Shown in pieces: positions 20,242 to 20,500 of a DNA stretch of 64,000 nt. The notes beneath the pieces were generated by a model. It did not search any database. It was not told where the DNA came from and was given only the letters and a program-made list of their open reading frames with translations. How positions within the stretch are numbered: position 1 is the first letter of the stretch; each line of letters opens with the position of its first letter. Source of the stretch: Haplodiscus bocki. Lineage: Eukaryota. A program made the position numbers and the translations under genes. Where the stretch lies: the NCBI GenBank assembly GCA_965655095.1, contig OZ296656.1:71300001-71364000 (forward strand), in the 5' to 3' direction.

Positions 20242-20500
20242 TTTAAACCCTGTCGTGAGACATCGGGGAATCCCTTCCCAGCTACGGCGATTGCTAGTGT
20301 AAGTTCCTCCGGAACGATAAACTGAAGTGGTGTCTCCCAACCGGTCGACTGTTTGCTGTTTAGAGGAAAGCAGTGGGAAACAGCGTGGTTGCTCCAAAGC
20401 TGGGCAGGTTGCTGCAAAGCAGTCCCTAAAAACTCCCAGCATCAACAGGTGAAAAGAAGCAATTGGCAGCTTCTTTCCCTGAATCTTCAAGACTCCCCCC
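20242..20500 (+). ncRNA. Putative structured 5'-UTR RNA element, homologous to 62991-63240
   Basis: Covarying stems between the two copies (see findings). Confidence 0.55.

Follow-up and report, generated by a model that had tools for sequence, protein, structure and literature searches.

A conserved, covarying leader RNA as a candidate translation element of spliced-leader-targeting L1-clade retrotransposons in Haplodiscus bocki

L1Tc is said to carry an HDV-like ribozyme at its 5′ end, and to our knowledge the LINEs with small 5′ ribozymes are the only ones, among those lying promoterless in arrays or small-RNA genes, for which ORF1 translation is understood. R2 and Perere-3 are also described as having ribozymes at the 5′ end, and in R2 the ribozyme cut defines the 5′ junction (sections of PMC8501958). 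The RNA described here, from non-LTR retrotransposons of Haplodiscus bocki, resembles those of R2, L1Tc (HDV-like) and Perere-3 (twister variants): it is structured, it lies at the 5′ end of a LINE, and that LINE is transcribed together with a multicopy host gene. Unlike them, it is about 240 nt long, has another helix order and no HDV or twister core, and does not mark the 5′ end of its element.

CRE and SLACS are non-LTR elements that target spliced-leader (SL) genes. NeSL, like the elements here, inserts into the SL exon with target duplication and accumulates in tandem, and tandem accumulation is described both for target-specific Tx1-clade elements and for SL-targeting non-LTR elements (parts of PMC4640811). 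NeSL uses a restriction-like endonuclease, whereas in the elements here the endonuclease is of the APE type and the ORF2 of the L1 type. In mammalian L1, recombination supplies lineages with new 5′ UTRs; the module acquired in that way is a DNA promoter, whereas here it is kept by RNA pairing. In the literature searched we found no description of acoel SL-targeting L1-type elements, nor of the RNA.

Viral IRESs of the intergenic region (IGR), HCV-like type IV and picornavirus type I/II classes have in common with this RNA a multi-domain junctioned fold, a possible pseudoknot and a position directly 5′ of an ORF, and a pyrimidine-rich spacer may often be a further point in common (passages of PMC5759354). 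The RNA differs from them in its AUG start, in having no shared AUUU/CAGCC, GGG or GNRA loops, in the distance of its possible pseudoknot from the AUG (about 100 nt or more) and in being carried by a retrotransposon. It is an uncatalogued 240-nt fold that four lineages have kept and that has passed between elements whose proteins differ greatly. Should it prove to be an IRES, it would be one of the rare examples from cellular genomes with real covariation, and should it be catalytic, a new ribozyme class.

An array of L1-clade elements in the spliced-leader exon

The analysed stretch of DNA (the window, 64,000 nt; C9, 71,300,001-71,364,000) belongs to an array of non-LTR retrotransposons arranged head to tail, with all units on the + strand. 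The array covers ~190 kb and has 49 junction-bounded units (C9:71,202,908-71,389,794); in the 100 kb further left there were none. Its elements encode APE, RT and zinc-finger domains, and the closest solved protein to the ORF2 is human L1 ORF2p (E 2e-54 vs 4e-30 for R2). Judged by these matches, they are L1-clade non-LTR retrotransposons with an ORF1 and an ORF2 predicted to contain APE, RT and a C-terminal zinc finger. Their target specificity fits the Tx1 clade within L1, and no named Tx1 sequences were among the ORF2 matches.

Every unit junction contains the motif GCCTAATTGTTGTGATA, the start of the acoel SL exon according to the SL sequence in the cited part of PMC9911081. Intact SL RNA genes (exon, GTAAG donor, U-rich site and hairpin) are arrayed elsewhere in the genome, and in some of them an insertion lies after one and the same base, flanked on either side by the exon start. 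This points to an acoel as the host. The elements are therefore SL-targeting: they insert at one site of the SL exon, with target duplication. Neither this assignment of the junction motif nor the exchange of UTRs between lineages that we deduce below had been seen in the first-pass annotation of the window.

At least 12 diverged L1-clade families are stacked head to tail in C9:71,202,908-71,395,000, uninterrupted by any intact SL gene. The true arrays of SL genes are found 1.4 Mb from the element array and on small contigs, and contain a few younger insertions. The SL motif with upstream AA has 292 exact genomic copies; the dispersed ones that were sampled (L035-L044) consist of SL exon and unrelated sequence, i.e. 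they are processed pseudogenes of trans-spliced mRNAs. Within the window, a full SL exon directly 5′ of a DUF4172 ORF is fused to an ORF2 3′ end (60657-61359), and is a retrocopied trans-spliced mRNA serving as an array unit. Eight tandem units of ~1.6-1.76 kb (30660-44570) comprise UTR, ORF1 and 3′ end without ORF2, and are an amplified non-autonomous derivative. Short units at 4658-8300, with duplicates in L012 and L013, have a different ORF1-like gene, a common 3′ end and no RT. ORF1 and ORF2 are fused in a single frame at 15044-17794 (916 aa until the break), and the sister unit at C9:71207970 is open for 1656 aa. Minus-strand fragments of DNA polymerase B and endonuclease VII mark an insertion (44900-55100) that is probably a decayed Polinton-like element. 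Four metagenome contigs (L162, L165, L175 and L184) have the same SL-targeting families at SL junctions (67-92% at the amino acid level). Public assemblies also contain relatives of the ORF2.

The RNA fold and its covariation

Two units of the window carry the RNA in their 5′ UTR, referred to as copy 1 (c1) and copy 2 (c2). The UTRs lie where the first-pass annotation had placed them and are 71% identical over 238 columns; the remainder of the two elements is 43-57% identical per 250-column bin (about 50%). The features are as follows.

20164..20180, + strand: first part of the SL exon, copy 1 (insertion target / target-site duplication), with 2 mismatches
20181..20245, + strand: leader without conservation; a short upstream ORF has its ATG at 20191
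20249..20254, + strand: 5′ strand NNNGUC, with alternative partners P0 (20383-20387) or P0′ (20403-20408), neither individually significant
20257..20336, + strand: predicted Domain 1, P1 (20257-64/20329-36) enclosing H1 (20266-79) and P3 (20282-87/20322-27)
20288-99, 20303-15 and 20316-20, + strand: inside P3, H2 (loop YGCU), H3 (variable length) and a GAUAA strand, respectively
20338..20391, + strand: predicted Domain 2, CAAYY (20338-42) paired with GGUUG (20387-91) around a variable two-stem hairpin
20403..20441, + strand: GGCWGGU motif and hairpin Pf (20410-14/20437-41), loop AGU-N4-(C/A)AAAA
20453..20476, + strand: last hairpin, with the 8-nt loop AAUUGGCA
20489..20491, + strand: site of an in-frame ATG in a sister contig; none in copy 1
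20430..21331, + strand: copy 1 ORF1, frameshifted; nearest relative is the ORF1 of lineage b
21682..24670, + strand: copy 1 ORF2 (APE and RT, broken)
62914..62930, + strand: SL-exon target, copy 2
62995..63225, + strand: second copy of the RNA (c2)
63242..63244, + strand: start codon of copy 2 ORF1

A profile of the c1/c2 pair detected three further distinct array copies (a, b and c) along with duplicates, and c2b, a 92% copy of c2 on another chromosome of the 1.5-Gb genome, came from a DNA search. The covariance model built from these six copies (c1, c2, a, b, c and c2b) was run on selected regions and gave 8 strong matches in 452 kb (7 in the array plus c2b); this and our other copy counts are lower bounds. 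DNA searches of the genome are insensitive (c1 as query missed c2). The model gave 0 matches in SL gene arrays and controls totalling 398 kb. With a as the query there were 17 matches, including a dispersed decayed family, and the four lineages c1, c2, a and b are 45-71% identical. Every full match sits at the 5′ end of an element, always directly 5′ of ORF1, and none is a free-standing gene (the context of one fragment, L105, is ambiguous). The leader of b and c (L014:1240-1350 and L003) is longer, ~170 nt, and 88% conserved, and b opens with three tandem SL fragments.

Two further candidate matches and one other were not homologues. A loose GGTTG..GGCWGGT pattern gave 137 matches vs 99 in the control, with 0 homologues among the 20 examined, and a tight pattern gave 0 matches in viral and metagenome contigs. 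Among 36 metagenome loci with the SL motif the best E was 0.095; in four of them with element relatives the RNA was absent from the flanks examined. These narrow searches found no copies of the RNA outside this genome and its sequencing runs, and the search of sequencing runs listed no carrier of the RNA.

In the alignment of the 6 sequences, 92% of the cells pair and 17 of the 36 pairs are changed on both sides (0/500 shuffles), while slid partners pair in 36-46% of the cells. With 12 sequences, 86-87% of the cells pair and 52-56 cells are doubly changed. As the helices were found by search, our null repeats the same helix search on column-shuffled alignments. The best helix, H1, has 5 double changes, which 0/200 shuffles reach; in four lineage representatives 10 helices are found, vs a mean of 1.4 in shuffles (0/200). 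H1 and P1 thus covary beyond the search-matched null and are well supported. Two double changes per helix are at chance level (shuffled mean best 2.46 for 6 sequences). For P3, H2 and CAAY/GUUG the support consists of conservation with one-sided changes, in P3 also of a mismatch-to-pair change in c; the 4-bp core of CAAYY/GGUUG is paired in 48/48 cells, with none changed on both sides. The Pf stem occurs in every lineage, but its columns are not aligned and it was therefore left uncounted. H3 varies from 9 to about 70 nt across copies, and the unpaired strands GAUAA, the YGCU loop, CCAA and AAAA are invariant.

The evidence for the fold is comparative; single-sequence folding is unremarkable (z -1.84 and -0.51). 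On this evidence we take a conserved multi-domain RNA fold of ~240 nt to be real and under selection, and larger than first described. The covariation seen between two copies thus holds in the deeper alignment, and no catalogued RNA matches it. P1, first noted as GAGACA/TGTCTC vs GAGGC/GCCTC, and the last hairpin with its TTGGCA loop are both present; the loop reads AGYUGGCA in c2, a and the dispersed family, and is different in b and c. Some details changed. The GGGAA/TTCCC stem exists but is identical in c1 and c2, so there is no compensation between them; with the other lineages added it covaries strongly (5/6 pairs changed on both sides). GCTGTTT/AAACAGC can pair, but homology favours CTGTTT/AAACAG plus an inner hairpin (by eye, uncounted).

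The 5′ strand may pair in either of two ways. P0 would make CAAY/GUUG a pseudoknot and has matched changes within c2/c2b and b/c; it is poor in c1, and its 2 double-change pairs are within the shuffled-column average (best 2.46). P0′ gives a nested fold in which 93% of the cells pair, with one matched change and a near-invariant U.G pair (10/12), and is broken in b and c. Thermodynamic folding does not favour P0, and constrained energies are indecisive between the two. Both P0 and P0′ are possible partners that fit the alignment, neither being individually significant. In the sister contigs of c1, from sequencing runs, the Pf stem and two loop consensuses are restored and one U.G is changed to U-A; a change at 20385 would weaken P0, with no partner change among 40 of the 82 differences.

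The RNA was also compared with known classes. In searches with Rfam 15, neither the window nor the four single copies matched any family: the whole window gave 2 chance matches elsewhere only, and the copies, all well short of the family thresholds, gave a best E of 0.28, on the opposite strand. With general core patterns, an HDV-like L3 descriptor was found in 0/6 copies on the sense strand (the fold, moreover, is not at the element 5′ end), hammerhead, hairpin and twister cores in 0/6 copies, with no Rfam match, and no group II core pattern was common to the six. A loose P7 pattern of group I or lariat-capping RNAs occurs in 3/6 copies at non-homologous places, again with no Rfam match, and the helix order differs from what we take to be that of group I (P3-P7 pseudoknot, P4-P6). 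The AUUU and CAGCC loops of the dicistrovirus IGR were found in 0/6 copies, and at most one pseudoknot is seen vs the triple one in the IGR. There is no shared GGG loop or GAYA hairpin as in HCV-like type IV, no GNRA loop at a shared place as in picornavirus type I/II, and neither RNase P/MRP CR-I/CR-V motifs nor an Sm site in any of the 6 copies. A GGG/CCC contact of HCV type was rejected, as the host 18S helix that we assume to be h26/ES7 has UUUA rather than CCC at its end. SL RNA was likewise rejected as a source or a pairing partner: 1/7 sense and 1/7 antisense comparisons fell below 5% of shuffles, in different lineages. By these comparisons no tested ribozyme or IRES signature appears to be common to all lineages.

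Exchange of the UTR and the ORF1 start

Unit a has the RNA, but in units whose ORF2 is 92-93% identical to its own the UTR is 189 nt long, AT-rich and lacks the fold, so that a and its 92%-identical neighbours form a natural with/without pair. The whole UTR of a is 69-79% DNA-identical to that of the dispersed family, until ~15 nt before the AUG of a; the RT pieces of this family (decayed) have 24-32% identity to the ORF2 of a. A dispersed copy 97% identical to this chimera (L150) is 5′-truncated inside the fold. Similarly, c1 combines a c2-like UTR and a b-like ORF1 with an ORF2 from a third group. In the ORF2 tree (FastTree, query-anchored alignment, midpoint root), the carriers a, c1, b and c2/c2b do not cluster together; the tree holds 26/51 units after 25 were dropped for low cover and omits c, whose ORF2 is probably part of the next unit. 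Pairwise identities are a firmer basis for exchange than this tree. They indicate that the whole 5′ UTR was swapped between elements whose RTs are about 25-30% identical. Because one module serves such different RTs, a binding site for the element's own protein is unlikely, and the RNA therefore probably acts with host machinery or alone.

The ORF1 AUG is present in a, b, c, c2 and c2b (5/6 copies) and in one of two c1 sisters; in c1 itself the first in-frame ATG is codon 82 of the 20430 frame. The ORF1 frame had been noted as open from the last hairpin. This is true for c1 and c2 but is not conserved in other copies: in a the frame closes after nine codons, in c2b it is shifted by one base, and the two c1 sister contigs (phased by matching depths across four runs from a single study) each have two extra bases near 20503 that close it just past the hairpin. 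One sister has an in-frame ATG at 20489-91; the other is without it and has further indels. The AUG-less open frame of c1 is best read as decay of that copy, and non-AUG initiation of the IGR type was rejected given the AUG in the other copies and in a c1 sister.

The UTRs of carriers measure 325-559 nt with -0.28 to -0.30 kcal/mol/nt, and those of 13 other units 162-341 nt with -0.16 to -0.25 kcal/mol/nt. Upstream AUGs occur in 4/6 carriers vs 3/13 others (small numbers, not significant); lineage b/c has none, and a different last hairpin. Pyrimidine tracts before the AUG are long in a, b and c and short in c1 and c2, and the pyrimidine fraction of the last 50 nt shows no excess (0.46-0.70 in carriers vs 0.48-0.74 in unstructured UTRs).

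Possible roles of the leader

Our first choice, held tentatively and at somewhat less than an even chance, is that the leader is an internal ribosome entry element for ORF1. Most array units are probably without an SL promoter in front and would be read as parts of long co-transcripts or as uncapped 3′-processing products, and a stably paired UTR of 325-559 nt that often contains upstream AUGs would be an obstacle to scanning. Through contacts of the fold with host initiation factors or with the 40S subunit, the latter would be brought over the pyrimidine-rich spacer to an AUG 10-170 nt downstream, and the two exclusive partners of the 5′ strand might, more weakly, switch the RNA between states. 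In size, possible pseudoknot and pyrimidine tract the leader is generally similar to viral IRESs (sections of PMC5759354). Its fixed place before an AUG and its exchange between lineages, which suggests host partners, are also in favour. An IRES-like role had been suggested in the first-pass annotation and stays plausible as a candidate, but the hint brought forward for it there, an open frame without ATG, belongs to one apparently decayed copy. Against such a role, 42/49 array units do without the RNA, so it is not required in the array, and transcripts from an SL promoter would carry a cap. Also against it are the lack of a defining IRES motif common to the lineages and of any match to Rfam IRES models, the absence of a pyrimidine excess before the AUG, and lineage b/c with its different last hairpin and no upstream AUG.

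An unlikely but serious alternative is a processing or stability element, either an undescribed ribozyme that would cut or cap some transcripts to make ORF1 mRNA, or a knot blocking 5′-3′ exonuclease once the upstream unit has undergone polyadenylation cleavage. Invariant unpaired strands, the U.G pair, the possible pseudoknot and the two exclusive pairings would suit catalytic or nuclease-blocking RNAs, self-sufficiency is compatible with exchange between lineages, and 5′-end ribozymes of non-LTR elements have precedents in R2 and Perere-3 (parts of PMC8501958). Array transcripts are, moreover, probably cut three bases into the downstream SL repeat, because two dispersed copies end there: c2b, which begins with an SL fragment and has unrelated flanks, and L150, whose end lies shortly past an AATAAA-like signal. 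The 5′ ends speak against processing, as the RNA begins 45-170 nt inside the element, L042 and 4/7 dispersed-family copies start with SL sequence and show no second SL copy in the stretch examined (10 kb for the family, one copy falling short of its 3′ end), the 5′ edge of the fold is not the start of any dispersed copy, and no known ribozyme core was found. Read from these ends, the copied template appears to have kept leader and fold, with no cut in front of or inside the fold. That dispersed copies retain the SL fragment and the whole RNA argues against a 5′-defining ribozyme of the R2 type, and the earlier idea of a self-cleaving RNA that releases units from array transcripts is weakened accordingly. 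Several cDNA-like metagenome contigs have a few more gene bases before the SL motif; the true SL start may thus lie slightly upstream of the motif, and we claim no exact 5′ end.

We consider it quite improbable that the RNA serves nuclear control, with host proteins helping an snRNA-type transcript from the SL promoter to escape early 3′ processing, or balancing template against SL-trans-spliced ORF1 mRNA. All carriers are tied to SL genes, host partners would suit exchange between lineages, and trans-splicing is known for nematode NeSL-1. A pyrimidine tract with YAG lies at most 20 nt from the AUG in a, c, c2 and c2b and within 19 nt in c1, but lineage b lacks a YAG in the 60 nt around its AUG, and 5/13 unstructured UTRs have one; nor does any carrier have an Sm site or a consistent likeness or complementarity to SL RNA. 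In an acoel, 30% of genes are SL-trans-spliced (figure from part of PMC9911081). There is, finally, a slim chance that the leader is a piece captured from a host RNA that has escaped recognition, or a site bound by proteins of the element itself, with no role in translation or processing. Acoel host RNAs diverge fast, so Rfam could miss one, and the DNA searches of the genome could have done so too, given the c2 copy that the c1 query missed. Capture is opposed by the location of all full matches at element 5′ ends, with no free-standing gene, and by compensation between element lineages, which points to selection inside elements; an own-protein site is opposed by the sharing of one UTR among such distant RTs. 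In the broadest reading the leader would be a new large functional RNA class (an IRES type, or a ribozyme or nuclease-blocking fold with a two-state switch), traded as a LINE cassette for expression from SL gene arrays, which is possible, although we lean against so wide a claim.

Several of the unstructured UTRs (C300:46279, C9:71383060, 71299315, i.e. the window start, 71276441 and 71368037) have a GCAG..CTGC or TTGCA..TGCAA hairpin. In 2/13 UTRs this hairpin lies 3′ of AATTTTG, an arrangement that recalls the U-rich site and GCAG hairpin of SL RNA and might represent SL-RNP mimicry.
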